Positions 1 through 24,808 of a stretch of 64,000 bases of DNA are shown here, one piece after another. This DNA comes from an uncultured virus (IMG/VR IMGVR_UViG_3300042863_002514) (lineage: Duplodnaviria > Heunggongvirae > Uroviricota > Caudoviricetes). The first letter of the stretch is position 1, and the number at the start of each line of letters is the position of its first letter. The stretch spans positions 1-64,000 of the IMG/VR virus record IMGVR_UViG_3300042863_002514. One strand, given 5' to 3'. Made by a program: the position numbers and the translations under genes. The notes below the pieces were generated by a model. The model saw only the letters and a program-made list of their open reading frames with translations. It did not search any database and was not told the origin of the DNA.

Positions 1-271
1 CTCGGTTGGTGTTCCAACAAATACTTTTGTCTACATCTTGATAGTAGCCGTCAAACAATGCTCGCACAAGATTTTTTCTGCGACTCACTGGTACTTCTGT
101 TCGCATACCAGGACTGTCTACACTAGTTTCAATCACTCCTCGAACCATAGTGGCTAGTGGATCAGTAATACTGGCATGCATCACTGGATTCTGTCGCAAA
201 ATGCTGCTTAGCAAGGTGCTTCCGCTCCGTGGTAGCCCGCTTATCATGTGATAGTGTTTTTCAGTTGTCAT
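1..271 (-). CDS. Sulfotransferase (partial; runs off window start)
   Basis: Not in the ORF track; translated by hand as MTTEKHYHMISGLPRSGSTLLSSILRQNP... GLPRSGSTL is the 5'-PAPS-binding motif. ATG at 271 overlaps the end of the upstream ORF. Confidence 0.85.
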   Translation of the reverse strand, partial: MTTEKHYHMISGLPRSGSTLLSSILRQNPVMHASITDPLATMVRGVIETSVDSPGMRTEVPVSRRKNLVRALFDGYYQDVDKSICWNTNR

Positions 272-1616
272 TTTGTTGTTTTTCTCGTAGAGTTGTTTTA
301 ATAATTTCACCTGCTCTCTGCAATGGTGTAGACCAACACCCTGGAGTCTGTTGCTTCAGTACACGTAAGCTTTTTGAATACCATGGCGTGCTCTCGTCAG
401 TATGTGTGCTGGTCCAAACATAATATTCCAAAATAGGCACACACACAATCCCAGGCACTCCCATACTGGCGGCTGCATGTATTATACTAGTACAACTGCT
501 GAGCACAATATCCATTTGACTGAGATAGTCCAGTGTGTCGTCCCAGGAGTTGATCCTGGCTCGAAGATTATGGCATCTCTCGTGCGTGTGCTGTAGATCA
601 AAATTGTAGATTTCAACATCCGAGGGTATCACACTCAGCATCTGCTCCAAAGGAATACAGCGATAAATGTCCTGCTCAAAATAAGGGTTGCCTTGACATT
701 TTACCCCAACACGTAGTTTTTTTGACGCAGGCAGTTTGGTATGAGGTTGGCCAGACGCTGTGAGATAAGGCCCTTTCCAAAGGTCTTGTTCGCCAACACC
801 CAAATCAATAGGCAAGTTCATGAGATAAGTCCAGGGCTGATGAACATCAATCTCCTCCTCATTCACCAACACTTCAAATCCATGTCGGCGGAACACTTGG
901 GCTAATCCAGGGCGGTCTAATATGCTGAAAAGTTTTGGTTGCATACCCAAGTTTTTGAGATGGTTGAAGAACCTGATGTTGATGAGCTCGTCACCAGCTC
1001 CTCCGCAGGCATTCACATAGAGAGTTTGGCCTGGCACCTTCACTCCATTCCAAATTCTCATTCCTTTGATGTCAAAAACAGTTGTGCGATCTCTGTCCGT
1101 GTGTAGGAACCACCGAATTCCTTCAGCAGTTTGTCCAGCTCGGAGCAGTGGATGAGTGTCAGTTATGCGCAGATTCTCGCACTGGTCAGCTGTGACCCAA
1201 GGCTGACACTTCAAATCATTTATTACTCTTTCGCTCTCGCCACGCTCACCATTTAACTTCAAACTGGCAGCATAACTCACTATAGCGTCAAAGTCATTTG
1301 GGCGCATTTCCAAATTTATCTTATTGTAAAATAATGCTTTTTCTGGCTGATTTGCACGATAATAGGCTTTGCCTAAGTTCACTCTTGCTACATAAGATTC
1401 TTCAGGTGTAGTGCACATACCTGCAACAGTTTCAGCACACTTGACAGCCAAGTCTGTATGACCAATCTTTAGGCTCACTGTGCCCAAAGTTTCCAGCTCT
1501 AGCAGTGTTTGCGCTCTGGGCCAATAATGGTCCAAGAGTTGAAATGCCAGTGGATGATTTTCCTGTTTGGCCAACTCCAGTGCTGTGGTTTTCACATGCT
1601 CAAATGTTGAGCTCAT
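261..1616 (-). CDS. TPR-containing glycosyltransferase-like protein (GT-B/GT9-like C-terminus)
   Basis: N-terminal TPR-like helices (VNLGKAYYRANQPEKAL), then GAGDELINIRF and DIVLSSCTSIIHAAASMG motifs typical of TPR-GT9-like proteins. Confidence 0.7.
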   Translation of the reverse strand: MSSTFEHVKTTALELAKQENHPLAFQLLDHYWPRAQTLLELETLGTVSLKIGHTDLAVKCAETVAGMCTTPEESYVARVNLGKAYYRANQPEKALFYNKINLEMRPNDFDAIVSYAASLKLNGERGESERVINDLKCQPWVTADQCENLRITDTHPLLRAGQTAEGIRWFLHTDRDRTTVFDIKGMRIWNGVKVPGQTLYVNACGGAGDELINIRFFNHLKNLGMQPKLFSILDRPGLAQVFRRHGFEVLVNEEEIDVHQPWTYLMNLPIDLGVGEQDLWKGPYLTASGQPHTKLPASKKLRVGVKCQGNPYFEQDIYRCIPLEQMLSVIPSDVEIYNFDLQHTHERCHNLRARINSWDDTLDYLSQMDIVLSSCTSIIHAAASMGVPGIVCVPILEYYVWTSTHTDESTPWYSKSLRVLKQQTPGCWSTPLQRAGEIIKTTLREKQQNDN

Positions 1617-1619
1617 GGG

Positions 1620-2162
1620 TTACTTTACTACCACTAACTGAATGTAGACTTCGTCGATTATGTTACAGTGCTGTTCAAGATACTGCTCTACCTGTTCTTT
1701 AGGTTGCCCCACAAATTGATCTTTGTATTTTTCCATGGGTCGCAAGCTGTAGTCCACCACCTCAAAATCCACATTGTAGCGTTCGGCAAGCCTACTGGCA
1801 TGTGCACCTTGCTTGCGTGCCAATTGGTTGTATTTGCAGCCAAACAAGCGCAAGCCATCTACAGTGACTGGGCGTTTGTGCGTGGGGTCGCTGAAGAAGT
1901 CATCACTGCGGTGATGAGGTACATGAATATGTACTCTTGCCCCAGGTTTGCACACTCGATAAATTTCCTGCAGACAGTGAAAATACCCCTCGCCCAAGTG
2001 CTCTAACACATGAGTGGCTCTCAACACATCTACACTGTTGGTGGGAAATGGGAAAATGTCTTTTTCAAGGTCAAAACAAAAATCAGGATTGCAGTTGGGA
2101 TCGTAGTCACAGTGCACATATCCATCAATCCTGTCTTCACCTGCGCCAATATAGATTTTCAT
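1620..2162 (-). CDS. Class I SAM-dependent methyltransferase
   Basis: IGAG motif I, HVLEHL, EIYRVCKPG and DPTH motifs. Confidence 0.8.
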   Translation of the reverse strand: MKIYIGAGEDRIDGYVHCDYDPNCNPDFCFDLEKDIFPFPTNSVDVLRATHVLEHLGEGYFHCLQEIYRVCKPGARVHIHVPHHRSDDFFSDPTHKRPVTVDGLRLFGCKYNQLARKQGAHASRLAERYNVDFEVVDYSLRPMEKYKDQFVGQPKEQVEQYLEQHCNIIDEVYIQLVVVK

Positions 2163-3766: not shown

Positions 3767-4597
3767 TTAGTATAATAGCCATTTGTCCTGAGAAATCAAA
3801 TAATCACGTAAATGTAAATATCCCTTCATCATGGTGTGAAATTTCAATAATTGCCCTTGCATGGTGTTTTTGTTGTAGTCAATTTTTTCCAAATGTTCAA
3901 AGTAGAAGAGGCATTCTTGTTCGCTGAGATACAAAGGTGCGTTGTACCAACCATGAAATCCCAATGCTGAGGTGTAACCAGTGAGCACTTCTGCACAGAA
4001 TTTTAAGCTGATATGTGCTGGAGCGAATCGAATGTTGTAGGCAGTTTCAAGGTAATTCTGGTTGAGCAGTGTAATCACAGCATCCTCACTGATGAAGGGC
4101 GTGTTGTGATTGGGGGTGTAGTTCCGGGTTTTGATCTGGGGATCTTCAGCTAGGATTTTGAGGAGGCGACGGCTTCGCAAGCTTAATCCTCCGCCACAGG
4201 TGAACCAATCTGCGTTTTTAAATTCTTGGTAGTGGCCACTGGCTTGCAGGCTGCCTTTCATTGGCGGAAATTCAGGATGCGAGAGGCTGCCCACGTAATC
4301 ATATTCAAAATATTCATCAGTCCAGGCTTTGGGGTTTGTGGCTATGCCATCATAGTGTGCTATCAACACAAAATCAGTGTTGATGTAGCTGTGCATGCTC
4401 TTGAGGCAGAAATCACAGTATTCCAGCATGCCAAAGTTTTCTGGAATTGGATATTGTGTATGGGGTTGTGCAAGAGTTAATGGTTGATCTGACACCACAA
4501 TTGTGGTGGTGATCGGTGTAGAGGCAAGGGTTTTTTGAAGTGAGAAACTAGTGAGTTCGTGCTGGATGTTTGTGATGGTGAATAGAGTAAGGGTCAT
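3767..4597 (-). CDS. DUF5672-like protein (putative glycosyltransferase-like)
   Basis: HYDG...W..EY..YDYVG, GGGLSLRSRRLL, SED and FGFHG-like (LGFHG) motifs. Confidence 0.7.
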   Translation of the reverse strand: MTLTLFTITNIQHELTSFSLQKTLASTPITTTIVVSDQPLTLAQPHTQYPIPENFGMLEYCDFCLKSMHSYINTDFVLIAHYDGIATNPKAWTDEYFEYDYVGSLSHPEFPPMKGSLQASGHYQEFKNADWFTCGGGLSLRSRRLLKILAEDPQIKTRNYTPNHNTPFISEDAVITLLNQNYLETAYNIRFAPAHISLKFCAEVLTGYTSALGFHGWYNAPLYLSEQECLFYFEHLEKIDYNKNTMQGQLLKFHTMMKGYLHLRDYLISQDKWLLY

Positions 4598-4629
4598 CCA
4601 GTAAGCTTAGTTGGCGATTTGACTGTGTG

Positions 4630-5979
4630 CTAGTTATAGCACTGGAGAATTGCAGCCGTCATGGAACCGGCCGAAGTTTGACACCACGCGGTGCTGCTGC
4701 TTATTTCTCTCACCGGACTTGAGCGATTGGTAACAGTGTTATCTCCTAACACACCGCAATCGTTAAATCCCCAAGTCCAAAGTGTGCCATCTGTCTTTAT
4801 TGCAGTGTTGTGATTACTACCAGCTGAAGTTTGACACCAAGTGGTGGAATTGGTGATTTCTCTCCCTGGACTTGATAGTAGACCTGTGTTGTTGATTCCT
4901 AACTGCCCACACTGGTTAAATCCCCAACTCCAAAGTGTGCCATCTGTTTTTATTGCACTAGTCCAGGCGCTTGCCGAAGTTTGACACCAAGTGGTGCTGC
5001 TGCTTATTTCTCTCACCGGACTTGAGCGATTGGTAACAGTGTTATCTCCCAACTGCCCACACCTATTACACCCCCAACTCCAAAGTGTGCCATCTGTCTT
5101 TACTGCACTGATGGTAATACCTTTACCAGCTGATGTTTGACGCCAAGTGGTGGAACTGGTGATTTCCCTTACAGGACTTGAGCGATTGGTAACAGTGGTG
5201 TCTCCTAACATACCGCAATAGTTATTTCCCCAACTCCAAAGTGTACCATCTGTTTTTAATGCACTGGTGTGAAAACTACCACTTGATGTTTGACACCAAG
5301 TGGTTGAACTGGTGATTTCTCTCACTGGACTTGAGCGACTTGTAACAGTGTTATCTCCCAATCTGCCACACCCGTTATATCCCCAAGTCCAAAGTGTACC
5401 ATCTGTTTTTAATGCACTGTTGTGAGAATTACCAGCTGAAGTTTGACACCAAGTAGTTGAACTGGTGATTTCCCTTACAGGACTTGAGCGACTTGTAACA
5501 GTGTTGACTCCCAACTGACCCTGGACATTGTATCCCCAAGTCCACAGTGTGCTATCTGTTTTTATTGCACTAGTGAAGGCGCTGCCTGCCGAAGTTTGAC
5601 ACCAAGTGACAGAACTGGTGATTTCTCTCACTGGACTTGAGCGACTTGTAACAGTGTTGTCTCCTAACGGACCGCATATATTACGACCCCAAGTCCACAT
5701 CTGTCTAAGAGGCCAATCTCGACGTAAAACCCTACCATCCAATCCCACCCATGAAGTACAAGTGGATATTACAGGTACACAAATACTTTTGACAAAAACT
5801 GTTTGACCAAAACCTATGCACTTTGTAGCTAGGTCAGGTAAGTCTGATACTGTGTTAACAACAAAACTAATGCCAACTCCAGCAGCACTGGTTTGGGCTG
5901 CTAACAAAGGAAAACAAACACTGTCGCAAGCAGTTATTAATGAGTCAATACTAGTTTGGATTTCAGAGGGTGTTGGCAT
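4630..5979 (-). CDS. RCC1-repeat 7-bladed beta-propeller protein, N-terminal class C (copy 2)
   Basis: Seven ~51-aa repeats WxWGxNxxGxLGDNTVTxRSSPVREITSSTTWCQTSAG...KTDGTL; the N-terminus carries VPVIS...WVGLDGR. Confidence 0.9.
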   Translation of the reverse strand: MPTPSEIQTSIDSLITACDSVCFPLLAAQTSAAGVGISFVVNTVSDLPDLATKCIGFGQTVFVKSICVPVISTCTSWVGLDGRVLRRDWPLRQMWTWGRNICGPLGDNTVTSRSSPVREITSSVTWCQTSAGSAFTSAIKTDSTLWTWGYNVQGQLGVNTVTSRSSPVREITSSTTWCQTSAGNSHNSALKTDGTLWTWGYNGCGRLGDNTVTSRSSPVREITSSTTWCQTSSGSFHTSALKTDGTLWSWGNNYCGMLGDTTVTNRSSPVREITSSTTWRQTSAGKGITISAVKTDGTLWSWGCNRCGQLGDNTVTNRSSPVREISSSTTWCQTSASAWTSAIKTDGTLWSWGFNQCGQLGINNTGLLSSPGREITNSTTWCQTSAGSNHNTAIKTDGTLWTWGFNDCGVLGDNTVTNRSSPVREISSSTAWCQTSAGSMTAAILQCYN

Positions 5980-5992
5980 GTTCTGTCTCCAT

Positions 5993-7333
5993 TTACTTCA
6001 AGGCACTGGTGTGAAAACCACCAGCTGATGTTTGACGCCAAGTGGTGGAACTGGTGATTTCCCTTACAGGACTTGAGCGATTGGTAACAGTGGTGTCTCC
6101 CAACTGACCAGAGCCATTGCCGCCCCAAGTCCAAAGTGTGCCATATATTTTTAATGCACTGGTATGTATCCACCCGACAGAAGTTTGACACCAAGTGGTG
6201 GAACTGGTGATTTCCCTTACAGGACTTGAGCGATTGGTAACAGTGGTGTCTCCCAACTGACCAGAGCCATTGTATCCCCAAGTCCACAGGGAGCCATCTG
6301 TTTTTATTGCAGCGGTATGGATACCAGCTGAAGTTCGACACCAATTGGTGCTGTTGGTAATTTCTATGTTTGGATTTGAACTATTAGTGATGGTGTTGTT
6401 TCCCAGCTGGCCCGACCCGTTTTCTCCCCAAGTCCAAAGTGTGCCATTTGTTTTTATTGCAGCAGTATTCGTAGGGCCTGCTGAAGTTTGACACCAAGTG
6501 GTTGAACTGCTACTTTCTCTCACTGGACTTGACTTAGCCGTAACAGTGTTGTCTCCCAACTGACCCCAACCGTTCCAGCCCCAAGTCCAAAGTGTGCCAT
6601 CTGTTTTTAATGCACTGGTATGGCTGCCGCTGTTAAACCCGCCTGACGAAGTTTGACACCAAGTAGTTGAGCTGGTGATTTCTCTCACTGGGCTTGAGCG
6701 ACTAGTGACAGTGTTGTTTCCCAGCGTACCACAGGATGCATTTCCCCAACTCCAAAGTGTGCTATCTGTTTTCAATGCGCTTGTGTGGGCATTACCAGCT
6801 GAAGTTTGACACCAAGTGGTTGAGCTTGTGATTTCCCTTACAGGACTTGAGCGACTTGTAACAGTGTTATCTCCCAACTGACCAGAGACATTGTAGCCCC
6901 AAGTCCACAGTGTGCTATCTGTTTTTATTGCACTAGTCCTACCACCGTTGGCAGCGGCGGCTGAAGTTTGACACCAAGTGGTGGAACTGGTGATTTCTCT
7001 CACTGGACTTGAGCGACTAGTGACAGTGTTGTCTCCTAACCGACCACACCCGTTAAAGCCCCAACTCCAAATTTGGTTTAGGGGAGTAGTACCTATAACA
7101 CCCCATCCCGTAACTGTGGCCACATACAGTGAGGTATTCAACACAACATAATACAATTCACCCACATTTGCGGCGGCTGTTGGTAAATCAGTCACTGCGT
7201 TCACCACATACACCTTGCCGCTTCTCAACTGCTGCAATACCTTGCTGTAGTAAAACAAATCCTGCTCATTAGTAGTGCTGGATATTTTTTGCTGCATTGT
7301 GAACACTAGATTAGCTACATTGATGGTAGACAT
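5993..7333 (-). CDS. RCC1-repeat protein, N-terminal class B (copy 2)
   Basis: Seven RCC1 repeats. ATG at 7333 forms a TGATG overlap with the upstream stop. N-terminus QQKI...DLFYYSKVLQQLRSG. Confidence 0.9.
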   Translation of the reverse strand: MSTINVANLVFTMQQKISSTTNEQDLFYYSKVLQQLRSGKVYVVNAVTDLPTAAANVGELYYVVLNTSLYVATVTGWGVIGTTPLNQIWSWGFNGCGRLGDNTVTSRSSPVREITSSTTWCQTSAAAANGGRTSAIKTDSTLWTWGYNVSGQLGDNTVTSRSSPVREITSSTTWCQTSAGNAHTSALKTDSTLWSWGNASCGTLGNNTVTSRSSPVREITSSTTWCQTSSGGFNSGSHTSALKTDGTLWTWGWNGWGQLGDNTVTAKSSPVRESSSSTTWCQTSAGPTNTAAIKTNGTLWTWGENGSGQLGNNTITNSSNPNIEITNSTNWCRTSAGIHTAAIKTDGSLWTWGYNGSGQLGDTTVTNRSSPVREITSSTTWCQTSVGWIHTSALKIYGTLWTWGGNGSGQLGDTTVTNRSSPVREITSSTTWRQTSAGGFHTSALK

Positions 7334-8694
7334 CAAAGGAATCCTTTGCAGGTTAGGATTTTTAAGGCACTAATATGGGCAGATGCCGAAGTTTGAAACC
7401 AAGTAGTAAAACTGCTGATTTCTCTTACTGGACTTGAGCGACCAGTTGTTGTGTTGTCTCCCAACTGACCATACTGGTTCCGGCCCCAATTCCAAAGTGA
7501 ACCATCGGTTTTCAATGCACTGACTGTCTGATTTCTGGAAGTTGAGGTTCGACACCAATTATTGCTGCTGGTGATTTCTCGCCCTGGTACTCCAGTACAT
7601 GCGGTGGTGTTGTTTCCCAACACACCACAACTGCCGTACCCCCAGGTCCAAAGTGTGCCATCTGTTTTTACTGCGGTGCCGGCATTGGAACCTGAGGCAG
7701 TTTGACACCAAGAAGTACTAGAGAGGGCTTCTCTCACTGGACTTGATCTATTGGTTGAGGTTCCGTCTCCCAATGTACCGCAGAAATTGCGTCCCCAAAC
7801 CCACAATGTGGAGTCTGTTTTCACTGCACTGGATACTTGACTTCCAGGGGAAGTTTGGCACCAATTGGTGGAACTGGTGATTTCTCTCACTGGACTTGAC
7901 CGCGTATTGGTGGAGTTGTCTCCTAACTGACCCCAAATACCACATCCCCAAGTCCATAGTGAACCATCTGTTTTAACTGCACTAGCTATGCTCGCACCAA
8001 AGGCAATTTGGCACCAATTGCTGCTGCTGCTGATTTCTCTTACCGGACTTGAGCGACTTGTTGTTGTGTTATCGCCCAACTGCCCACAGAGATTGAGTCC
8101 CCACACCCAAAGTGTGCCATCAGTTTTTATTGCACTAGTGGGACTATTACTACCAGCCGCAGTTTGGCACCAATTACTGCTGCTGCTGATTTCTCTTACG
8201 GGACTTGAGCGACTTGTTGTTGTGTTGTCTCCTAACGAACCACCCGTGTTATAGCCCCAACTCCAAAGCGAGCCATCTGTTTTTATTGCACTGGTGTGAC
8301 CACCACCAGCCGAAGTTTGACACCAATTGCCGCTGTTGCTGATTTCTCTCACCGGACTTGACCGACAAGTAACAGTGTTGTCTCCCAACTGACCAAACCC
8401 ATTGGCTCCCCAAGAAAAAACGCTGGGTTCAACACGCTGCACGATGCTTCGAAAGTCTGTTGTCCAACAAATGCCATCACTGACGCGATACTGGCAAGTG
8501 TCTTGTAGATACACCATCCTTCCTTGATTCAAGGTCGCAGTGGGCAAAGCAGCGAGATTGGAAAAAGAAACCACTGCTTGAGTGTCGAGAATACATTGTG
8601 CACCCTGCAACTGACAACAGCTTAATGGAGTAAGCCCACCTGCTGCCAAACGTGAAGTAATTTGTGTTTGTAGTGTTTTTGCTGATGTGGTCAT
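7333..8694 (-). CDS. RCC1-repeat protein, N-terminal class A (copy 2)
   Basis: Seven RCC1 repeats. Likely ATG at 8694 (MTTSAK). N-terminus AALPTA..N.GR...YRVSDGICWTTDF. Confidence 0.9.
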   Translation of the reverse strand: MTTSAKTLQTQITSRLAAGGLTPLSCCQLQGAQCILDTQAVVSFSNLAALPTATLNQGRMVYLQDTCQYRVSDGICWTTDFRSIVQRVEPSVFSWGANGFGQLGDNTVTCRSSPVREISNSGNWCQTSAGGGHTSAIKTDGSLWSWGYNTGGSLGDNTTTSRSSPVREISSSSNWCQTAAGSNSPTSAIKTDGTLWVWGLNLCGQLGDNTTTSRSSPVREISSSSNWCQIAFGASIASAVKTDGSLWTWGCGIWGQLGDNSTNTRSSPVREITSSTNWCQTSPGSQVSSAVKTDSTLWVWGRNFCGTLGDGTSTNRSSPVREALSSTSWCQTASGSNAGTAVKTDGTLWTWGYGSCGVLGNNTTACTGVPGREITSSNNWCRTSTSRNQTVSALKTDGSLWNWGRNQYGQLGDNTTTGRSSPVREISSFTTWFQTSASAHISALKILTCKGFL

Positions 8695-8695
8695 G

Positions 8696-10069
8696 TTATT
8701 GCGGAACAACTAATATAGTTTTAATAGCACTAGTATCCACTTTACCAGCCGAAGTTTGACACCAAGTGGTGCTGCTGGTGATTTCTCTCACTGGACTTGA
8801 TCGATTGGTAATAGTGTTGTCTCCCAACTGACCACACAAATTGCCTCCCCAAGTCCAAAGTGTACCATCTGTTTTTAATGCACTGTTATTGACACAACCA
8901 GCCGAAGTTTGACACCAAGTGGTGCTGCTGGTGATTTCTCTCACTGGACTTGAGCGACCAGTTGTTGTGTTGTCTCCCAACTGACCACACCCGTTAGAGC
9001 CCCAACTCCAAAGAGCGCCATCTGTTTTTATTGCAGACGCGTGCCGATATCCAACTGATGTTTGACACCAAGTAGTGCTGCTGCTGGCTTCTCTCACTGG
9101 ACTTGACCGGTTTGTTGTTGTGTTGTCTCCCAACTGCAAACCTCCTCCCCAACTCCAAAGTGTGCCGTCTTTTTTTATAGCACTAGTGCTTATACCACCA
9201 GCTGAAGTTTGACACCAAGTGGTGCTGCTGGTGATTTCTCTTACAGGACTTGACTTACTTGTAGCAGTGTTGTCTCCCAATCGACCATAGCCGCCGGAGC
9301 CCCAACTCCAAAGTGTGCCATCTGTTTTTACTGCACTGGCAGTATAATTACTGGATGCTGTTTGACACCAAGTGGTGCTGCTGGTGATTTCTCTTACTGG
9401 GCTTGAGCGATTGGTAATAGTGTTGTCTCCCAACTGACCAGAGGCATTGCTGCCCCAACTCCAAAGTGAACCATCTGTTTTTATTGCATGTGTACTTCTG
9501 TTATCAGACGTAGTTTGACACCAAGTGGTGCTGCTGGTGATTTCTCTTACAGGACTTGACTTACTTGTAGCAGTGTTGTCTCCCAATCGACCGTAGTTGC
9601 CTCTGCCCCAACTCCAAAGTGTGCCATCTGTTTTTAATGCACTGGTATGATAAAAGCCAGCTGAAGTTTGACACCAAGTGGTGCTGCTGGTGATTTCTCT
9701 TACTGGGCTTGAGCGATTGGTAATAGTGTTGTCTCCCAATCGACCGTTGTTGTTGCCGCCCCAACTCCAAAGAGCTCCTCCCACTGTAGGAGTGAAATTC
9801 CTGCCATCAAAACCAATCCAACAGCCATTGAGGCTCACTACGGGCACAAGTGCATCGCACAAAAAAACAACATGCCCATTTGGTAACCCAGTTGAACAAC
9901 TGCAACCAAATAAGGTATCTATGCTGATGAAACTACTCCGATTACTGTCAACAGCGTCTTGTGATGCTGCTGCTAACACCACATCCATACTGCATGTGAG
10001 TGTGCCACTTGAGCATATTTCGCTCACCACAGAGTTGAGAAGTGTTGCACAGCAGAGGTTATTGGCCAT
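8696..10069 (-). CDS. RCC1-repeat protein, N-terminal class C (copy 1)
   Basis: Seven RCC1 repeats; Cys-rich N-terminus with VPVVSLNGCWIGFDGR. Confidence 0.9.
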   Translation of the reverse strand: MANNLCCATLLNSVVSEICSSGTLTCSMDVVLAAASQDAVDSNRSSFISIDTLFGCSCSTGLPNGHVVFLCDALVPVVSLNGCWIGFDGRNFTPTVGGALWSWGGNNNGRLGDNTITNRSSPVREITSSTTWCQTSAGFYHTSALKTDGTLWSWGRGNYGRLGDNTATSKSSPVREITSSTTWCQTTSDNRSTHAIKTDGSLWSWGSNASGQLGDNTITNRSSPVREITSSTTWCQTASSNYTASAVKTDGTLWSWGSGGYGRLGDNTATSKSSPVREITSSTTWCQTSAGGISTSAIKKDGTLWSWGGGLQLGDNTTTNRSSPVREASSSTTWCQTSVGYRHASAIKTDGALWSWGSNGCGQLGDNTTTGRSSPVREITSSTTWCQTSAGCVNNSALKTDGTLWTWGGNLCGQLGDNTITNRSSPVREITSSTTWCQTSAGKVDTSAIKTILVVPQ

Positions 10070-10080
10070 CTTGCGCTTCC

Positions 10081-10731
10081 TTAACCACCACTCACTAGAT
10101 TGGGCACGTTGCCTACCACTAACACTTCCAACTCCTCTATAGTGGTTGAGGCAGTGATTTCATCATCTTTGAGTTTTTCCCAGTCAAATGTGGCTTGAAT
10201 ATGCGCTGCACCAGCAGCGACGCATTGGCCTAATTCATCTTTTGTGAGAGTGAGCCAAGTTTCCGGAAACTTCCAATTCACTGTTTCATCAGTTGCCATA
10301 AGAGAGTATTTTTGCACAAAAATGTTCCTACCTTCTCTGCTAGTGTCAATAGTAACTTTTTTACCTTGTATCACAGTGTGTGTGCCACCCACTTCAGCAG
10401 TGTAGCGATTGGCTTGTGCCTCGTCTCGCAACTGAGCTTGTATCTCCCAAATTTGCTTGTATTTGATCTCAAATGTACCAACGGCAATTGCAGGATTAGT
10501 GAAATCCCAGAACGGACCATAATAGGTTTGTGTTCGAGAGTTATGATCGGGTATCACCAGCTGTGCTGTGGTCAAATAGGTGGCATCGTCTATCACAATA
10601 GGAACGGTTTCAGGGTCATTGCGCGGCAGCAATGCTGAAATCTTAAGGCGGTCCAGACCGCCTTCAAACATTGGCCTATTCCAACTCATTGGACCTACCA
10701 ACACTCTTTCGTTATGTACTAACACATACAT
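10081..10731 (-). CDS. DUF4376-domain protein (tail-fibre-associated/chaperone-like)
   Basis: C-terminal RYTAEVGG..IDTSREGR..VNWK..WLTLT..EL..HIQATFDWE pattern; SD (AAGGA) upstream. Confidence 0.7.
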   Translation of the reverse strand: MYVLVHNERVLVGPMSWNRPMFEGGLDRLKISALLPRNDPETVPIVIDDATYLTTAQLVIPDHNSRTQTYYGPFWDFTNPAIAVGTFEIKYKQIWEIQAQLRDEAQANRYTAEVGGTHTVIQGKKVTIDTSREGRNIFVQKYSLMATDETVNWKFPETWLTLTKDELGQCVAAGAAHIQATFDWEKLKDDEITASTTIEELEVLVVGNVPNLVSGG

Positions 10732-10748
10732 ATTTTATTCCTTTTATC

Positions 10749-12068
10749 TTAAATTGTTTGCCGGGCTACAGTAAACAGGCCCTGTCCTATGCTAACTTCA
10801 CTCCAGGAGCTTGAACTGGATATTTCACGTATAGGCAATAAACTTCTGATTGTAGAGTTGTTACCAAGTTGGCCACAATTGTTATTACCCCACATCCATA
10901 AAGTGCTTGCGGTTGTTAAAGCGCCACTTCTGCCAAAGCCGGCAGTGACTTGGCACCAATTGGTTGCACTTGTTGCTTCCTGAATTGGTGAGCTCCTGGA
11001 TACAGTAGAGTTGTCTCCTAAAGCACCACAAGCGTTGCAACCCCATGCCCATAGTGTGTTAGTTGTTTTTAAGGCAATAGAGTGAGCAAACCCAGCGGAA
11101 GTTTGACACCAAGTGGTGGAGCTACTTATCTCTTGAACGGGACTTGATACATTGCTAGTGCTATTATTGCCAAATTTGCCACACTCGTTTGACCCCCATC
11201 CCCATAAAGTACCACTTGTTTTGAGTGCTAGGGTACCGTAGAGGCCGGCAGAAACTTGACACCAATTGGTTGAACTGGAAATTTCTCGCACAGGACTAGA
11301 CCTATTAGACAGATTGCATGTGCCCAGTTGCCCAGTCCCATTATTTCCCCAACCCCAAAGGGTTCCATCTGTTTTTAGTGCAGCAGTATGCGAATATCCA
11401 GGTGAGGTTTGGCACCAAGTGGCACTGCTGCTGATTTCACGCACTGGGCTAGATTTGTTAACTATAGTGTTATCACCCACTTGGCCATATGTGTTCTTTC
11501 CCCATGCCCACAAACTGCCATCACTTTTAACACCAGACATTGTGTAAAAAGACGTACCTATTTGACACCAAGTTGTGCTGCTGGTGATTTCTCTTACAGG
11601 ACTTGACTTACTGGTAACAGTGTTGTCTCCCAACTGACCACATACGTTATTGCCCCAAAGCCATAAGGAACTATCCTGTTTTAACCCCATTGAATTTACC
11701 GAACCAGCTCTGAGTTGCAGCCAGTTGCAGGAGCTTGTAATCTCTCTGACAGGACTTGATTGATTGGTTGTATTACTTGTGCCCAATTGTCCACAACTGT
11801 TTGACCCCCACGCCCAACCTGTGTTAGACTGTGATACAATAGGAATCCAAAATACAGAATTACTGAAAACTACTCTTTGAGCGTCTTCAACCAAATACAA
11901 TTTACCATTGCTGGCTGATGCAGTAGGTAATAATTGAGAACAGGCTACAACAAACATAGCGCCTGTTCTCAGTTGTTGAATAGCCCGTGTATATGTGAGC
12001 AAATCTAGATTGTCGTTGCCTGCTGCGATTTTTTGGCTAAGGGCAAATTCAATTTGATTTAAGTTCAT
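10749..12068 (-). CDS. RCC1-repeat protein, N-terminal class B (copy 1)
   Basis: Seven more-diverged RCC1 repeats; N-terminus SQKI...DLLTYTRAIQQLRTG. Confidence 0.9.
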   Translation of the reverse strand: MNLNQIEFALSQKIAAGNDNLDLLTYTRAIQQLRTGAMFVVACSQLLPTASASNGKLYLVEDAQRVVFSNSVFWIPIVSQSNTGWAWGSNSCGQLGTSNTTNQSSPVREITSSCNWLQLRAGSVNSMGLKQDSSLWLWGNNVCGQLGDNTVTSKSSPVREITSSTTWCQIGTSFYTMSGVKSDGSLWAWGKNTYGQVGDNTIVNKSSPVREISSSATWCQTSPGYSHTAALKTDGTLWGWGNNGTGQLGTCNLSNRSSPVREISSSTNWCQVSAGLYGTLALKTSGTLWGWGSNECGKFGNNSTSNVSSPVQEISSSTTWCQTSAGFAHSIALKTTNTLWAWGCNACGALGDNSTVSRSSPIQEATSATNWCQVTAGFGRSGALTTASTLWMWGNNNCGQLGNNSTIRSLLPIREISSSSSWSEVSIGQGLFTVARQTI

Positions 12069-13414
12069 AGTGCTACAAATCCTGAAATTTTACCTTGAAT
12101 GGCCATTGTTTGCCTTGTACTGCTAGTTACACAACTCCACGACGTGGCTGATGTTATCTCTCTCACAGGACTGGAAACTGATGTAACTGTGTTGTTCCCC
12201 AACGCGCCACATGATGCATTTCCCCAGGTCCACAATGTGCCATCTGTTTTTAACGCCGCGGTATGCGCGCATCCACCAGATACTTGACACCAAGTTGTTG
12301 ATGATGAAATTTCTTGTATAGGACTGCTCCGGCTGGTTGCAGTATTATTTCCCAGCTCTCCACATGTATTTAAACCCCATGCCCACAGAGTGCCATCGGT
12401 TTTTATAGCATTTGAATGATACTTGCCAGGCCCAAATGTGCACCAATTTGTAGAGCTGGAAACTTCTCGAACTGGGCTGCTGGCATTTGAGGTAGAGTTG
12501 TTACCGAGAACGCCATATCCACCTGAGCCCCAGCTCCAAAGTGTATTGTCTTTTTTCAACGCAACTGCTAGGTTGTAACCGTTTTGTATTCTGCACCAGG
12601 AGGTTCCGCTTGTTATTTCTCGCACTGGTGAACTGAAGTTAGTTGTGTTGTTGGTTCCCAGTACTCCACATGTGTTGACTCCCCAGGTCCACAGACTGCC
12701 ATCAGACTTGACAGCAGCAGAGTGTCGCAGCCCTCCACTGCTGATTGAACACCAATTTGTACTTGATGATACCTCGCGGATTGGAGAACTGCGGGTTGTT
12801 TTGGTGCCATCGCCCAAATTACCGCAAAAGTTGTCGCCCCATGCCCACAGTGTGCTATCACATTTTAAAGCCAAAAGATGGAACGCAAATGACCCTACAC
12901 TTGTCCAGGTTGAAGAACTACTTATTTCACGAACTGGACTACTTTGGTTAGCTGTTGCATTATTGCCCAGTGCACCACAATTGTTGTAACCCCAAGTCCA
13001 TAGTGAAAGGTCTGATTTTATTCCTGCTGATGTTGTATTGCTAGTGACAGTAACCCAATTGCAGCTTGAGCTTATTTCTCGAACAGGTGAACTCTGGGAA
13101 GTTGTTGTATTATTGCCCAAACCTCCACAGAGGTTCCAACCCCACCCAAACACACATGCGCCTGTCCAATTTGTATTGAAGTCATTGGTCCATTGGGTGC
13201 CATCACTGTAGCGATAGTCGCCAATGTCCGTTATCCAAATAAACCTGCCTGTATTGTCACATGCTGTTGGCAATGCTGCACAATTTGCTACACAATAGAT
13301 CCCATTCAAAGCCGCTTGAATACCTGCCAACTGAGCAGTTTGCAGAACATCTTGATTGGCCAAGACAATGCATGCGTTGGCTTGTGTGATGAGTTTGCCA
13401 GCAGCCACAGACAT
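12065..13414 (-). CDS. RCC1-repeat protein, N-terminal class A (copy 1)
   Basis: Seven RCC1 repeats; N-terminus AALPTACDNTGR...YRYSDGTQWTNDF. Confidence 0.9.
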   Translation of the reverse strand: MSVAAGKLITQANACIVLANQDVLQTAQLAGIQAALNGIYCVANCAALPTACDNTGRFIWITDIGDYRYSDGTQWTNDFNTNWTGACVFGWGWNLCGGLGNNTTTSQSSPVREISSSCNWVTVTSNTTSAGIKSDLSLWTWGYNNCGALGNNATANQSSPVREISSSSTWTSVGSFAFHLLALKCDSTLWAWGDNFCGNLGDGTKTTRSSPIREVSSSTNWCSISSGGLRHSAAVKSDGSLWTWGVNTCGVLGTNNTTNFSSPVREITSGTSWCRIQNGYNLAVALKKDNTLWSWGSGGYGVLGNNSTSNASSPVREVSSSTNWCTFGPGKYHSNAIKTDGTLWAWGLNTCGELGNNTATSRSSPIQEISSSTTWCQVSGGCAHTAALKTDGTLWTWGNASCGALGNNTVTSVSSPVREITSATSWSCVTSSTRQTMAIQGKISGFVAL

Positions 13415-13418
13415 GTGA

Positions 13419-13676
13419 TTAAGTCAGTGCCAACAAAGCTAGTGTTCGAGCAGTGTTGTCTTGGCCACCAAAACTGCCCCAAACTGTGCCGTCGTAGCCT
13501 TCAAAACTGGCTTGCGTAGTATTGTAACGGATTTGTCCTGTTGCTGCTGTTGGTCTTTCACCATCTGTGCCCACAGGCAATTTTAGTGCAGATGTGCCGC
13601 TGAAATTGGCATACCCAGTAATAGTCAAATTTTGGTTATCGGCGATGACTGTAACGCCTGATATTTTTATGGCCAT
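13419..13676 (-). CDS. Small virion fibre/adaptor protein
   Basis: The LPVGT..ERP...GQIRYNT....FEGYDG..W motif recurs in the N-terminus of the 36989 protein. SD AAAGGAG upstream. Confidence 0.7.
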   Translation of the reverse strand: MAIKISGVTVIADNQNLTITGYANFSGTSALKLPVGTDGERPTAATGQIRYNTTQASFEGYDGTVWGSFGGQDNTARTLALLALT

Positions 13677-13709
13677 CTTCGCGCTCCTTTTAGAGTACTC
13701 GGTTGCACT

Positions 13710-13717
13710 TATTTATA
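13710..13717 (-). promoter_or_regulatory. T4-type late promoter TATAAATA upstream of the RCC1 gene array
   Basis: Exact TATAAATA, 33 nt upstream of ATG 13676. Confidence 0.7.
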
Positions 13718-13735
13718 GAGACGTGAGAACATTAC

Positions 13736-14668
13736 TTAACTTTGATTTAGTCCCAAGTGTTTTTTCAATACTTCAATACTTTCGGCCTGCTCTTGCAATG
13801 CCTTCAACAACAGCGGTATCAACTGAATATATGCCACAGTTTTCCCTGACGCGGTTGTACTCACAAGAGATGGTATAACTTGCTCTACTTCTTGAGCCAA
13901 TAAACCAAAACTGTGTTTGCTGGCATGCTTCCAGTCAAAACTAACGGGATTGAGTTCCTTGAGAATAGCCCAACTGTCGGTAATTGTTGAGATGTTTGTT
14001 TTGAACGCAGCATCACTGATGCTGTTGAAGTCAACAGCAGCCACTTCACCAGTGCCAGGATTATAGGTGAATGCTGTTGCAGTGCTGCGTATCCTAGGAG
14101 TAGTGCTAGAGCCAGCAGTGTCCACAAAAACCGGATAAAATGTTGAATTTGTTGTGGTATTTGTAGCAGTAATTGAGGTTGAGCTGCCGGCTGTTCCGCT
14201 CCATCCACTAGTGCCAGAAAATCCACTTGTGCCCGCACCGCTAAATCCGCTCCATCCACTTGTTCCGCTCCAGCTTTTGAATACACAGCTTATTCCTGCT
14301 CGGGGGTTGATTTCAAATGGTTGATTGAGAGCTCAAATTCAAAAATTTCTCTCTTGAGGCAGAAACACAACATCATTGTTGAGCAAAATTATGCGTTGAC
14401 CTTTGGCTAGCTTGATAGCTAGATTGTTGGCACCACTTTATCCCAAGGGTTGATCACTCCATACAATTTGACAGTGATCAGCCATGCCAACACTGACAAA
14501 TTGCTGTTGTAGATCTTGTAGATAGTCACATTTGTTGTCTGTGCAACCATTGGCGCTGACTATCAATTCAACGTCAGTCATTTTGTTATGAGAGCAAAGG
14601 CTTGTAGTGCAAGGTTCTAACAAGTCATTGCAGTGGTTGTAGGTTGGTATGATAATAGAGTATTTGAA
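13736..14668 (-). pseudogene. Decayed in-frame fusion: GT2 N-terminus joined to SG-repeat fibre C-terminus with peptidase-S74-type chaperone domain
   Basis: One frame reads KYSIIIPTYNHC...QPLG*SGANN...ERNF*I*ALNQPFEINPRAGISCVFKSWSGTSGWSG...[28 protein letters not shown]. Stops are at 14438-40, 14339-41 and 14333-35, and the Met is lost. The parts are paralogous to 49015 (N-term) and 44986 (C-term). Confidence 0.85.
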
Positions 14669-14729
14669 TTGTAGAGTCACAACAAAATTATACAAACTTT
14701 TTGATAGCACTACAATTTAGAGATTGAAA

Positions 14730-15588: not shown

Positions 15589-16464
15589 TTATAGATTCCC
15601 AGTCTGGGTTGTCGGGAACAGTCTAGTGGTTCCTGGCCATATTATGCGAACGGCCCCATTCCCGCCACTAACGCTACCGCCGCCGTCACTCTGAAGCCCA
15701 CCGCCGCCATACAATGCACCCACACCTGTACCTGTGTAACCCTTGCCATTTTCGCCACCACTGCCGCCGCCGCCGCCTGCACTGCTACTCGCTCCCCCAT
15801 TACCCCCTGCTGTTCCATTTGCTCCTTGTCCCAGTATTCCTACGCCGCCCCCAGCTGTTGCATAATAAGAGCTACCTCCACCGCCGCCACCGCCGGAACC
15901 AGCGTTGCCAGGTCCTGATGCGCCACTTGTAACGCCCGCAGCACCACCATTACCTGTGTAGCCACCTGCGCCACCACCACCAGAATACGCGCCAGTATTT
16001 GAAGCACCACCATTACCTCCGCCGTCTCCAACATAAGTTCCACCTGCACCTGCATAAGTTCCACCTCCACCTTGTACGGTTAAAGCGGATATGAAATAGC
16101 TAGCAGCACCATTTGCACCAGCACCGCCACCTGCACCAACAACCACAGTATATAATGTGCCTGGCGTAACACTGATGTTATTTTTATAACCCAAACCACC
16201 GCCACCGCCACCTAGATATGTGGTCGCTGTGGCACCTTTTCCGCCCCCTCCCCCAACGCATACTACACTCACGCTATTTACTCCCGCAGGGCATGTCCAT
16301 GTGTATGTACCGGGAGTGGTATATGCCTGTTGTCCAAGGGAAAGAATTACGGGTGGCCAACGATTATGCTTTACTGCCAAAAAATTTTCTCTCAAAGACC
16401 ATACTCCTGAAGCTACTGAAGTAGTTGGATCATTTGGTTTGCCTATGATATTGCCTTTGCCCAT
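15589..16464 (-). CDS. Glycine-rich-domain virion protein
   Basis: YTTPGTYTWTCPAGVNSVSVVCVGGGGG start motif, poly-Gly tracts and a closing GGNGAVRIIW. Confidence 0.75.
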   Translation of the reverse strand: MGKGNIIGKPNDPTTSVASGVWSLRENFLAVKHNRWPPVILSLGQQAYTTPGTYTWTCPAGVNSVSVVCVGGGGGKGATATTYLGGGGGGLGYKNNISVTPGTLYTVVVGAGGGAGANGAASYFISALTVQGGGGTYAGAGGTYVGDGGGNGGASNTGAYSGGGGAGGYTGNGGAAGVTSGASGPGNAGSGGGGGGGSSYYATAGGGVGILGQGANGTAGGNGGASSSAGGGGGSGGENGKGYTGTGVGALYGGGGLQSDGGGSVSGGNGAVRIIWPGTTRLFPTTQTGNL

Positions 16465-19908: not shown

Positions 19909-20238
19909 TCAACCCAAAATAGAGGGTTTGATACTTACAGTTGGTATGAAATCTTTTTTTGCTGTAATTTTTGAGATATTGGACTGTTGAGGTGTATGAA
20001 AATCATCCTCTGGGTTTATCACAGTGGGATCTTCAGTTGTGGGCCCCACGCTGTCTTTTACAGTGTCAAGGTGTTGTTGGAGTGGTGGACTCCACTTGGC
20101 ATCGCCCTCTTCACCATAACGCACTCCAGGATTTATCACATCACTGTCAGCTTGCGCTTTCAACACATCGCCCAAGGGGATGTTGATTGTAACAGGCACA
20201 TTTACAGTAAATTCTCGAATAAATTCTTTAGCTCTCAT
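19909..20238 (-). CDS. Hypothetical protein; N-terminus MRAKEFIRE resembles T4 capsid-targeting leaders
   Basis: ORF with ATG start in operon context. Confidence 0.65.
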   Translation of the reverse strand: MRAKEFIREFTVNVPVTINIPLGDVLKAQADSDVINPGVRYGEEGDAKWSPPLQQHLDTVKDSVGPTTEDPTVINPEDDFHTPQQSNISKITAKKDFIPTVSIKPSILG

Positions 20239-20259
20239 ATTTTACACCACATATGTTTG

Positions 20260-20967: not shown

Positions 20968-21006
20968 AATTTCTCAACAATTGATTTGTCGATATTTATG
21001 GAAAGG

Positions 21007-21183
21007 TCAAATAGAGACTTCAATAACCAGTTTACTGTCTTCAAGTAGCTGCTCTACAACACTGGGCAAGCTTTCAAACAATGCCAAAAGCTGCTCAGAA
21101 GAGAGCACACTAGCCAGTTGTTCATCATCCTTGATAAGTTTGCTGATGGAAATTGAAATAGTTTGACAGGCTATTTGTGCCAT
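21007..21183 (-). CDS. Small hypothetical protein, 58 aa
   Basis: Below the ORF cutoff: MAQIACQTISISISKLIKDDEQLASVLSSEQLLALFESLPSVVEQLLEDSKLVIEVSI. It has SD AAGGA and a GATAAATA box at 21205-21212 and fills the gap exactly. Confidence 0.75.
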   Translation of the reverse strand: MAQIACQTISISISKLIKDDEQLASVLSSEQLLALFESLPSVVEQLLEDSKLVIEVSI

Positions 21184-21207
21184 TTATAAGGTCCTTGATT
21201 AGAGTAT

Positions 21208-23828: not shown

Positions 23829-23850
23829 ATGTGCTGTCCTGGTGAAAGAT

Positions 23851-24708: not shown

Positions 24709-24782
24709 ATGTATATTATATTTTTATATTGCTGCCTTGTCAATGCAGGAAAAACTAGCAACTTATTGAACACACAAAACTT

Positions 24783-24790: not shown

Positions 24791-24808
24791 TGTTGATGGG
24801 AAAATTAC

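Follow-up and report, generated by a model that had tools for sequence, protein, structure and literature searches.

Six RCC1 propeller genes lie beside tail-fibre genes

The window, by which we mean the whole 64,000-nucleotide stretch analysed (positions 1 to 64,000 of IMG/VR record IMGVR_UViG_3300042863_002514), belongs to a cyanophage-like giant virus and carries, on its minus strand and beside tail-fibre genes, an array of six RCC1 propeller genes within positions 4630-13414 (Table 1). In the direction of transcription the array reads A-B-DUF4376-C-A-B-C, where A, B and C denote the class of N-terminal domain and each class occurs twice. The start of B1 and the stop of A1 share a 4-nt overlap, and 14 of 15 A-to-B junctions fall between -4 and +3 nt, seven of them being 4-nt overlaps. 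In A2 and B2 the first in-frame start codons are TTGs further upstream, and we regard the ATGs at 8694 and 7333, respectively, as the likelier true starts.

Table 1. Features of the RCC1 array and its flanks (window coordinates)
Feature	Position	Strand	Remarks
TPR protein and methyltransferase	261..2162	-	TPR protein 261-1616, methyltransferase 1620-2162; pair after last C gene in relatives
RCC1 gene C2, 449 aa	4630..5979	-	class C N-terminal domain 5701-5979
RCC1 gene B2, 446 aa from ATG 7333	5993..7333	-	class B N-terminal domain 7073-7333
RCC1 gene A2, 453 aa from ATG 8694	7333..8694	-	class A N-terminal domain 8422-8694
RCC1 gene C1, 457 aa	8696..10069	-	class C N-terminal domain 9773-10069
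DUF4376 protein, 216 aa	10081..10731	-	Pfam DUF4376 and phrog_10508 matches
RCC1 gene B1, 439 aa	10749..12068	-	class B N-terminal domain 11820-12068
RCC1 gene A1, 449 aa	12065..13414	-	class A N-terminal domain 13154-13414, then 7-blade propeller
Leader protein, 85 aa	13419..13676	-	N-terminus MAIKISGVTVI..., fibre beta motif LP..G..RYN....EGYDG..W, conserved C-terminal tail ...DNTARTLALLALT
Leader C-terminal tail ARTLALLALT	13422..13451	-	proposed joint to RCC1 N-termini
T4-type late-promoter consensus match TATAAATA	13710..13717	-	36 nt upstream of leader ATG
Fibre-gene C-terminal remnant with S74 intramolecular chaperone domain	13736..14125	-	Pfam Peptidase_S74 E 1.3e-14

We defined an RCC1-like domain (Pfam PF00415 / PF25390) as seven tandem repeats of about 50 amino acids above the curated cut-offs, and all six proteins exceed these cut-offs, with 140-169 bits against 21.7 for RCC1 and 196-295 bits against 150 for WD40_RLD. 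Across the full 119,063-bp record there are 42 RCC1 repeat matches, 40 of them above the cut-off and all within 4648-13153, and counting the SSPVRE-type blade anchor gives exactly seven blades in each protein and 42 altogether, as initially annotated. An AF2 model of A1 (pLDDT 85.2 overall and above 90 in the propeller) has UVR8, HERC2 and RCC1 as its top Foldseek matches (E 5e-34 to 1e-26, target-length TM 0.79-0.90), with RPGR also among the matches. Together, the profile matches and the predicted structure show the six proteins to be of the seven-bladed RCC1 propeller fold.

The region is highly repetitive, with a 77-nt unit present 33 times and a 300-nt unit 23 times, which lends some weight to the concern that repeated blades were mis-assembled and that the six-gene order is false. 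We consider such an artefact extremely improbable: seven other IMG/VR contigs, from other assemblies, carry the same array with 1 mismatch in 21,347 bases (13,302 bases for the shorter contig L004), and diverged relatives (about 40-67% identity) retain both the gene order and the flanks.

The genes around the propellers place the array in a fibre context. The small fibre-motif protein and the DUF4376 gene that the initial annotation had reported at the head of and within the array, respectively, are both borne out: the leader matches virion and fibre PHROG families, including virion structural phrog_6005 at E 1.8e-15, and in relatives its homologues are encoded directly ahead of the first A, while the DUF4376 protein matches PF14301 over residues 96-200 (45.3 bits against a cut-off of 25, E 1.3e-11) and phrog_10508, labelled 'tail fiber protein', at E 8.2e-13. 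The late promoter proposed to lead the array fares less well. The two TATAAATA sites in the window are both intergenic and upstream of same-strand genes; however, 1.4 sites are expected and 37 of 100 shuffles also reach at least two, so that the motif is a consensus match without statistical support rather than a demonstrated promoter. On its upstream side the leader adjoins the S74 remnant, whose read-through is fibre-like and contains no start codon before 14125, with a 90-aa GT2 fragment upstream. Also nearby are collagen-like fibres, a giant fibre gene and, besides the S74 chaperone domain, one for tail assembly chaperones. At the other end of the array, DUF5672 and carbamoyltransferase genes separate the last C gene from the methyltransferase/TPR pair in the window.

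Three N-terminal classes recur across phages whereas propellers group by genome

To compare the N-termini (about 85 aa), pairs were scored as Smith-Waterman z-scores against 300 shuffles. Same-class pairs score 21.1 (A1-A2), 19.7 (B1-B2) and 6.4 (C1-C2), and the 12 cross-class pairs range from -0.8 to 6.3, with the highest of these, B2-C2, nearly equalling the C1-C2 value. The motifs initially quoted for each class are all present, namely YRYSDGTQWTNDF and YRVSDGICWTTDF in class A, QKI...DL..Y....QQLR.G in class B and G..VF...VPV.S...W.G.DGR in class C. A maximum-likelihood tree built from 55 N-termini across phages recovers A and C as clades with support of 99/98 and 97/100, respectively, and leaves B as the unresolved remainder; the three class labels require two changes on this tree, which is the minimum and was reached by 0 of 200 shuffles. 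Furthermore, the terminal C gene (C2 in the window) is orthologous across lineages, with a terminal-C clade supported at 99/96. Judged by these sequence comparisons, the three classes, each represented twice here as first described, are real and old, and predate the divergence of these phages.

Unlike the N-termini, which group by class across phages, the propellers are homogenised within each genome, with DNA similarity of 77-82% over 0.7-1 kb. Each blade has two loops in which the variability between blades sits, WG.N..G.LG and AG..H..A. Since the heads are homogenised within a genome and do not track the classes, the earlier idea that each class displays its own, different propeller head is wrong as a conserved feature.

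The N-terminal domain also heads collagen-like fibre proteins

In the N-terminal domain a pair of helices precedes a beta motif, LP-x(5-7)-G-x(3)-V-x(5-7)-Y-x-S-x-G-x(2)-W. A profile built from the 55 N-termini matches 801 representative proteins at E<=1e-3, and full-length matches occur at the N-termini of collagen-like or other fibre-like proteins with E of about 1e-13 to 5e-21. In P0090, P0009, P0012, P0024, P0027, P0040-42, P0086 and P0149, for example, the complete domain stands ahead of collagen GXY repeats or another fibre-like body, and in some long proteins among the matches the beta motif is repeated 4-15 times in tandem. A structure search with the N-terminal domain returned no significant match (best Foldseek E 0.9, best VIA Z 4.0); the sub-threshold likenesses of the model (E >= 0.9, Z <= 4.0) are to collagen XV/XVIII trimerisation domains and phage spike parts.

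The C-terminal tail of the leader, expressed as the pattern AR[TS][LI][AS].L[AG], has a single match when the whole window is translated in six frames. Of 28 related loci examined, 21 have this tail (consensus ARTLAxLAL) at the end of the gene before the first A by pattern search, and variant tails were recognised by eye in three more; in the L073 lineage no leader gene precedes the array. Ahead of this tail, the smallest leader bodies are minis of 80 aa, and others are fibre-like or collagen-like and span 145 to more than 500 aa.

Classes A, B and C occur in equal numbers in related arrays

Having defined array lineages at >=90% identity of the first A protein, we found equal counts of A, B and C in all 12 arrays that could be followed end to end, which hold three, six or nine RCC1 genes in five gene orders. 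Writing the DUF4376 gene as a slash, these are AB/CABC (four arrays: the window, L019, L088 and L177), ABB/CAC (five arrays: L009, L026, L050, L090 and L164), AB/CABCABC (L035), AB/ABCCABC (L073) and AB/C (L072/L074). Each of the 12 has a single DUF4376 gene, placed in every case after the first B or BB. Among partial arrays, L120 has the order of L035 with its first gene cut by the contig end, and two lie outside the five orders: L044 reads A, A' (816-834 aa) and B before the contig ends, and in L151 the B gene stops after about two blades and runs into unrelated sequence, so that this contig may be chimeric. RCC1 arrays of related phages thus come in ABC multiples, as anticipated. By the same token, the occurrence of ABB/CAC and AB/ABCCABC means that the term 'duplicated triplet', applied to the window from the outset, holds as a description of composition and not of conserved order.

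Taken at face value, these counts suggest an equal need for A, B and C, and the three classes may work jointly on the virus particle. A 1:1:1 rule could also arise without selection, through duplication of a triplet unit followed by rearrangements that keep its composition, and the 12 arrays perhaps go back to 4-5 independent events.

A proposed role as propeller-headed fibre subunits

On balance we lean, by a little, towards reading the array as encoding fibre subunits that attach to the virion of a jumbo cyanophage-like myovirus, carry propeller heads and fall into three co-required anchor classes. Each protein would combine a fibre-type N-terminal domain of about 85 aa, serving in anchoring and oligomerisation, with a 7-blade RCC1 propeller acting as the binding head, and anchors A, B and C would be required equally, as one, two or three sets. 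These sets would be expressed behind the leader, whose conserved tail ARTLAxLAL would form the joint to the anchors, with the single DUF4376 protein of each array acting as an assembly factor or adaptor; the methyltransferase and TPR genes after the array are candidates for modifying the RCC1 proteins. The propellers would evolve in concert through gene conversion, with variation gathering in the two loops of each blade. We infer the virion location of these proteins, the binding function of their heads and the joint at the leader tail from the features described above.

A virion or fibre role, also put forward in the initial annotation, fits the neighbouring genes, the anchor found on collagen-like fibres, the conserved leader and the virion RCC1 proteins of other phages. 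The RCC1 proteins might instead be non-virion proteins that work inside the host cell during infection or are released from it, for instance in host takeover or DNA condensation, with the N-terminal classes as localisation or partner tags. Pointing that way are the PHROG label 'regulator of chromosome condensation' (category DNA metabolism), the position of the three RCC1 genes of coliphage W70, which are surrounded by small early-type genes and remote from the structural module, and the suggestion, repeated by the W70 authors, of help in DNA packing (PMC11370258). The label, however, comes from the name of a eukaryotic family and not from a test; the genes here have fibre genes on either side and follow a fibre-motif leader, their N-terminal domain is common to collagen-like fibre proteins, and RCC1 proteins were detected in purified virions of W70 (gp237-239, three tandem proteins identified by ESI-MS/MS; PMC11370258) and by mass spectrometry as a virion protein of Cronobacter phage GAP32 (GAP_001; PMC5259590). 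We therefore regard a non-virion role as highly unlikely.

Within the favoured reading of virion-attached fibre subunits, the way in which the classes assemble is a separate matter. Equal class numbers and tight A-B gene junctions are consistent with co-assembly of A, B and C as a heterotrimer, which we put forward tentatively. In a version that we hold just as loosely, one A, one B and one C subunit would cap the tail of a trimeric leader stalk, such that the fibre end shows three different propellers; phages would hold one, two or three cognate ABC sets, and gene conversion would reshuffle the heads as the anchors stay fixed. The predicted A+B+C N-terminal complex was weak and, because the three classes are homologous, computation of this kind does not separate hetero- from homo-oligomers here.

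It is also possible, at similarly modest odds, that the array encodes three kinds of homotrimer with self-trimerising N-termini, in which A, B and C are addresses for different baseplate or fibre sockets and the equal numbers are a by-product of triplet duplication. Known phage fibres and spikes are homotrimers as a rule, and a B-like domain is found at the N-terminus of collagen-like proteins, whose obligate trimers are presumably homotrimeric. Moreover, the L035 and L073 copies cluster by genome in the N-terminal tree, as block duplication predicts, and S-SRM01-type relatives tolerate unequal class numbers. Against homotrimers, the 1:1:1 ratio is kept across all five gene orders; the similarity among propeller genes permits out-of-register recombination, which would generate unequal sets, and none were seen; and a single leader, rather than three, precedes each array. 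No receptor-binding phage fibre is known to us to be heterotrimeric, and the A-B-C heterotrimer, if true, would be the first.

Comparison with known systems

The propellers resemble eukaryotic RCC1-like domains (RCC1, UVR8, HERC2 RLD) in their 7-blade fold, with UVR8 (4dnw) matched at E 4.8e-34 and a target-length TM of 0.87. Identity is nevertheless 19-24% (19-20% to RCC1 chains), so that the fold alone is common with RCC1, and the phage proteins differ in their fibre-type N-terminal domain and unusually uniform blade sequence. A bacterial phage has no Ran, and there is no reason to expect Ran GEF activity of the phage RCC1 proteins.

A second comparison is with modular tail fibres and receptor-binding proteins linked end to end, for instance collagen-like cyanophage fibres and the T4 long tail fibre (gp34-gp37). 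The array shares with these an N-terminal anchor and an exchangeable distal part, an N-terminal domain that also occurs on collagen-like and other fibre bodies, a leader ending in a conserved tail just before the gene of the next subunit, and nearby S74 chaperone and tail assembly chaperone domains. It differs in that a monomeric 7-blade propeller takes the place of a trimeric shaft or tip at the distal end, and in having three paralogous anchor classes in fixed proportion.

The nearest named phage is Synechococcus phage S-SRM01 (Kyanoviridae; gp335, gp337 and gp344), with 43.6% identity over the propeller; the paper describing it contains no occurrence of RCC1, chromosome condensation or propeller. 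Phages of this type share the synteny of a fibre with an S74 domain, RCC1, a DUF4376-like gene, RCC1 and a TPR protein, and have three recurring N-terminal types (X, Y and Z, assigned by eye), usually one each. By contrast with the window, their N-termini are short, at about 30-45 aa, and give no match to the profiles of A, B or C, their DUF4376 gene follows the first gene and not the second, and class numbers are unequal in some (X/Y..ZZ, XX/Y..Z and XXY?/YZ). One lineage (L086, L127, L162) carries both an X/YZ triplet and an ABC array.

Tandem RCC1-like arrays or virion RCC1 proteins are already in print for W70, GAP32, 121Q and PBECO4 (PMC11370258, PMC5259590), which share with the window several tandem paralogous propeller genes encoding proteins of about 40-45 kDa. 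The W70 family phrog_4219 is the best or second-best PHROG for all six proteins here; the sequence similarity of these phages to the proteins of the window lies below what tblastn picks up at E 1e-5. The three W70 proteins have one N-terminal motif (MLEMLNLG) rather than three classes, and their genes lie outside the structural module. In the relevant passages, the W70 and GAP32 papers mention no class rule, leader protein or DUF4376 partner (PMC11370258, PMC5259590). The initial view that the architecture was undescribed is thus to be divided: RCC1 gene arrays in phages are known, whereas we found no description of the three-class rule, which, together with the leader tail and the domain-limited homogenisation, looks new.

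A single array of six RCC1 genes in a jumbo phage

The source record, whose first 64 kb make up the window, is 119,063 bp long and 34% complete by CheckV, and contigs with the same DNA reach 328,603 bases (rated 77% complete), indicating a jumbo phage. Among named phages the closest is S-SRM01, a freshwater myovirus of Synechococcus (Kyanoviridae) that shares 43.6% identity over the propeller; megablast searches with positions 4000-14300 and 20000-40000 matched no named phage. Around the array, the window encodes PhoH, a clamp loader and glycosyltransferases as well as a 2512-aa fibre protein and several collagen-like tail fibres. Each of the six RCC1 proteins scores above the Pfam cut-offs for RCC1-like domains, and a blade-anchor motif finds exactly seven blades (RCC1 repeats) per protein; the 42 RCC1 repeat matches of the whole 119,063-bp record all lie within the array, in agreement with the six seven-bladed proteins and 42 blades of the initial annotation. 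Because the array recurs with a single mismatch on seven further contigs, an assembly artefact is excluded, and its identity across all eight assemblies likewise rules out a diversity-generating or hypervariable cassette system.

Coordinates of the array and associated features (window numbering unless stated)
Feature	Coordinates	Strand	Remarks
RCC1 array	13676 to 4630	minus	leader (85 aa), A1, B1, DUF4376 gene, C1, A2, B2, C2
N-terminal domain of A1	13154-13414	minus	
N-terminal domain of C1	9773-10069	minus	
N-terminal domain of A2	8422-8694	minus	
N-terminal domain of C2	5701-5979	minus	
Fibre gene remnant	13736-14710	minus	upstream of leader
Methyltransferase and TPR pair	261-2162	minus	TPR protein of ~450 aa
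Glycine-rich protein	15589-16464		
TATAAATA	44503-44510	plus	intergenic spacer
Second A gene of L090	15875-17017		L090 numbering; 381 aa

The late promoter thought to head the array comes down to a single TATAAATA upstream of the leader (the gene directly before the first A), a match that lacks statistical support. The second and only other TATAAATA of the window sits between the 2512-aa fibre gene and a 1325-aa collagen-like fibre gene and lies on the strand of these two genes. Upstream of the leader, only a remnant of a fibre gene is left: ~190 fibre-like codons with an S74 intramolecular chaperone domain and no start codon before 14125. Directly in front of it is an N-terminal fragment, 90 aa long, of a family-2 glycosyltransferase, an arrangement also present in the phage's other seven assemblies.

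The N-terminal domains fall into three classes

Each protein joins an N-terminal domain of ~85 aa (the anchor) to a seven-bladed propeller (the head). Smith-Waterman comparisons pair the anchors of A1 with A2 (z-score 21.1), B1 with B2 (19.7) and C1 with C2 (6.4), and the motifs quoted for each class were found, which bears out the proposal of three classes each represented twice. Cross-class pairs score from -0.8 to 6.3, values that are not all zero because these N-termini, in the window and in relatives alike, belong to a single domain family and can be aligned collinearly, with near-invariant positions at L48, P49, G56 and W75 (A1 numbering). The clustering by class was recovered in a maximum-likelihood tree of 55 N-termini, independent of the class profiles, in which class A (99/98) and class C (97/100) are clades and class B is the unresolved remainder; the three labels require only 2 changes on this tree, the lowest possible number, a value reached by 0 of 200 shuffles.

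Mean cysteine content per 85 aa of N-terminus is 3.4 in class A, 2.2 in class C and 0.33 in class B, and the A and C domains are likewise Cys-rich in relatives from most lineages. The A and C counts covary, non-significantly, among lineages that are not phylogenetically independent (Spearman 0.63, p 0.09, n=8), being zero in both classes in the related loci L035 and L074 and high in both elsewhere, a hint that disulfides could link A to C.

Related arrays contain the three classes in equal numbers

Related arrays were gathered by a protein-alignment scan of IMG/VR, which gave >745 RCC1 stretches, by searching IMG/VR and metagenome contigs with the class A motif as a degenerate DNA pattern, and by extension of two contigs. 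The DNA pattern matched 38 stretches in viral records and 70 in metagenomes, a large share of them by chance and without RCC1 genes; a protein search with the A1 N-terminus alone was limited by its word index to 4 close relatives. Every RCC1 gene was assigned by class profiles, and arrays sharing at least 90% identity of the first A protein were treated as one lineage. End-to-end arrays were bounded upstream by the leader or other non-RCC1 DNA and downstream by a methyltransferase gene with a TPR gene; in the window's lineage, DUF5672 and carbamoyltransferase genes come first, inserted between the array and that pair. A, B and C genes are equal in number in 12 of 12 end-to-end lineages, so that arrays do come in ABC multiples as anticipated; the fixed A-B-C order also proposed gave way to five gene orders, ABB-D-CAC and AB-D-ABCCABC among them.

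Gene orders of end-to-end arrays (D, DUF4376 gene; L numbers, related viral or metagenome loci)
Order	Lineages	Remarks
AB-D-CABC	window, L019, L088, L177	
ABB-D-CAC	L009, L026, L050, L090, L164	
AB-D-CABCABC	L035	63 RCC1 repeats, all that the contig holds
AB-D-ABCCABC	L073	
AB-D-C	L072/L074	

In a 13th array (L120, AB-D-CABCABC) the first gene is cut by the contig end. Other loci are fragments consistent with the five orders, except L044, with A, A' (a double-length protein) and B before the contig ends, and L151, perhaps a chimeric contig, whose B gene passes into unrelated sequence after about two blades. Genes are closely packed, with 14 of 15 A-to-B junctions spanning -4 to +3 nt.

Some relatives depart from this plan in individual genes. 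The second A gene of L090 is shorter than the 458 aa seen in sister contigs of its ABB-D-CAC lineage, which may reflect a frameshift or an assembly error. Three metagenome contigs (L159, L162, L185) of a lineage with AB-D-ABCCABC carry one class B gene of 750-769 aa, whose product matches the window's glycine-rich protein and represents the B type plus an extra fibre-like domain. Giant multi-propeller proteins occur in viral contigs L016, L018, L053 and L031: one of 2445 aa with 27 blade motifs, one of 1430 aa with 24, and three of 727-729 aa with 14 each. Phages of the S-SRM01 type have RCC1 proteins with three short N-terminal types, X, Y and Z, and in one lineage (viral and metagenome contigs L086, L127, L146 and L162) an X-D-YZ triplet with its own DUF4376 gene is followed directly by a leader and an ABC array that has another DUF4376 gene, so that a single phage can carry both RCC1 systems.

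All lineages seen have the methyltransferase and TPR pair behind the array, where it follows the last C gene of L009, L019, L026, L050, L073, L074, L089, L092, L164 and L177, a linkage from which the pair may be suspected of modifying the RCC1 proteins. A Ser/Thr-rich motif (SSPVREITSSTTW) recurs in the blades with unusual uniformity. No family matched the TPR protein in its C-terminal half, PDB sequences matched its TPR repeats only, and NCBIfam returned no match for the TPR, DUF5672, DUF4376, leader and tail-chaperone-domain proteins.

Anchors and heads have separate histories

When the window and L009 proteins are compared in trees, N-termini group by class and propellers by phage (100/100), and class labels fit the propeller tree no better than shuffled ones. 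A second propeller comparison covered four phages sharing the order AB-D-CABC: window propellers 1 and 2 each group with the orthologue at the same position in L088/L089 (100/100 and 96/93), window propellers 3-6 form one clade of their own (97/98), and all six propellers of L177 cluster together (99/97). Since propeller clades follow the genome, heads are, by these trees, homogenised within it, in the window only downstream of the DUF4376 gene. Anchors remain class-specific and in some cases position-specific, the terminal C forming one clade across six phages (support 99/96). Blade variation is concentrated in two loops, and the six window heads, which had been taken for three conserved class-specific types, differ (51-73% identity) but not along class lines.

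The anchor resembles a fibre module and may be joined to the leader

AF2 predicts for the anchor two helices (residues 5-17 and 23-37) and, after them, short strands in the region of LP...G...V...Y...W, with a mean pLDDT of 80.6 for the anchor modelled alone and 45-78 for that region in the full-length model. A profile of the 55 N-termini matched 801 representative proteins among 1.84 billion at E<=1e-3, a number that includes generic fibre-repeat proteins and so exceeds the true family. The matches comprise many RCC1 proteins of ~450 aa; long proteins that repeat the beta-motif 4-15 times in tandem and have sub-threshold Pfam matches to DUF2793, a collagen trimerisation domain and the T7 fibre N-terminal domain; and proteins in which a complete B-like anchor precedes collagen GXY repeats or other fibre-like bodies. 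On this sequence evidence, its occurrence on collagen-like and fibre-like bodies makes the anchor a general N-terminal module of fibre proteins, compatible with trimers; in the 328-kb contig, it is found in the six RCC1 genes only. Fold searches with the anchor model gave nothing significant, the best rows being leads only: collagen XVIII and XV trimerisation domains (Foldseek E 0.9), and CBA120 TSP3 (VIA Z 4.0) and phage spike parts.

The leader ends in a tail, [DE]-x-[TYFL]-A-R-T-[LI]-A-x-L-[AG]-L, with the stop codon directly after. A regular expression finds this tail in 21 of 28 loci and variants were recognised by eye in L085, L184 and L044; the L073 lineage is without it and upstream DNA is too short in two loci. 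In a six-frame translation of the whole 64 kb the motif is unique. The leader body is variable, being an 80-120-aa mini-protein with one fibre motif in the window's form and a fibre-like or collagen-like body of 145 to >500 aa in others. The leader would be a stalk, with its tail serving as the joint for RCC1 anchors.

Receptor-binding proteins determine which hosts a phage can infect, and almost all known ones are homotrimeric, each fibre bearing a single type of head. We lean towards a reading in which the array encodes fibre subunits that attach to the virion, carry propeller heads and require all three anchor classes together, the virion location being suggested by gene context, the shared anchor domain and mass-spectrometric data published for RCC1 proteins that are distantly related. 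Equal class numbers through five gene orders, tight A-B junctions and the single leader count towards co-assembly, and an A-B-C heterotrimer can be put forward tentatively. Complex prediction with A1(1-92), B1(1-88) and C1(1-104) was rated as weak support, with a median score of 0.43 (0.64, 0.43, 0.28) against 0.11 for the best control, and is given no weight here, because with homologous classes even a high score does not distinguish hetero- from homotrimers; partner pLDDT was at least 41 and contact agreement between runs at least 21%. In calibration, 116 of 157 solved complexes attained the mark, as did 2 of 215 mismatched pairs, with scores of 0.60 or below in only 18 of the 157 and in both mismatches. 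With about equal probability, the same subunits may form three kinds of homotrimer at three sockets, an arrangement that follows the near-universal rule for phage fibres and fits both the B-like domain heading collagen-like proteins and the unequal class numbers tolerated in the X/Y/Z family. Should the three classes of propeller-headed subunit instead co-assemble, one fibre tip would show three binding surfaces simultaneously, and two or three sets would give their phage a built-in repertoire.

Comparison with known systems

The RCC1 family is common in aquatic viral metagenomes, and understanding it would aid the reading of host-recognition genes in many uncultured cyanophage-like viruses. 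Fibre joints in new genomes could be located through the conserved leader tail and anchor domain. The S-SRM01 paper makes no mention of its RCC1 genes, no publication was found that links RCC1 propellers with phage receptor-binding proteins or virions under those terms, and the matches listed for RCC1 with cyanophage are mostly strain numbers of a culture collection. Published accounts describe tandem RCC1 gene arrays or virion RCC1 proteins for phages W70, GAP32, 121Q and PBECO4, with mass spectrometry placing RCC1 proteins in W70 and GAP32 virions (PMC11370258, PMC5259590); the latter are only distantly related to those of the window. RCC1 arrays and virion RCC1 proteins are thus already known in phages. 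A search of the accessible literature gave no description of anchors divided into three classes in fixed proportion, of the leader tail or of homogenisation restricted to heads, and these features appear to be new. Whereas X, Y and Z may be unequal in number in S-SRM01-type phages, A, B and C are equal in end-to-end ABC arrays, and this three-part conserved anchor system in strict proportion, carrying heads copied and edited among themselves inside the genome, points to a design that differs from the usual homotrimers.
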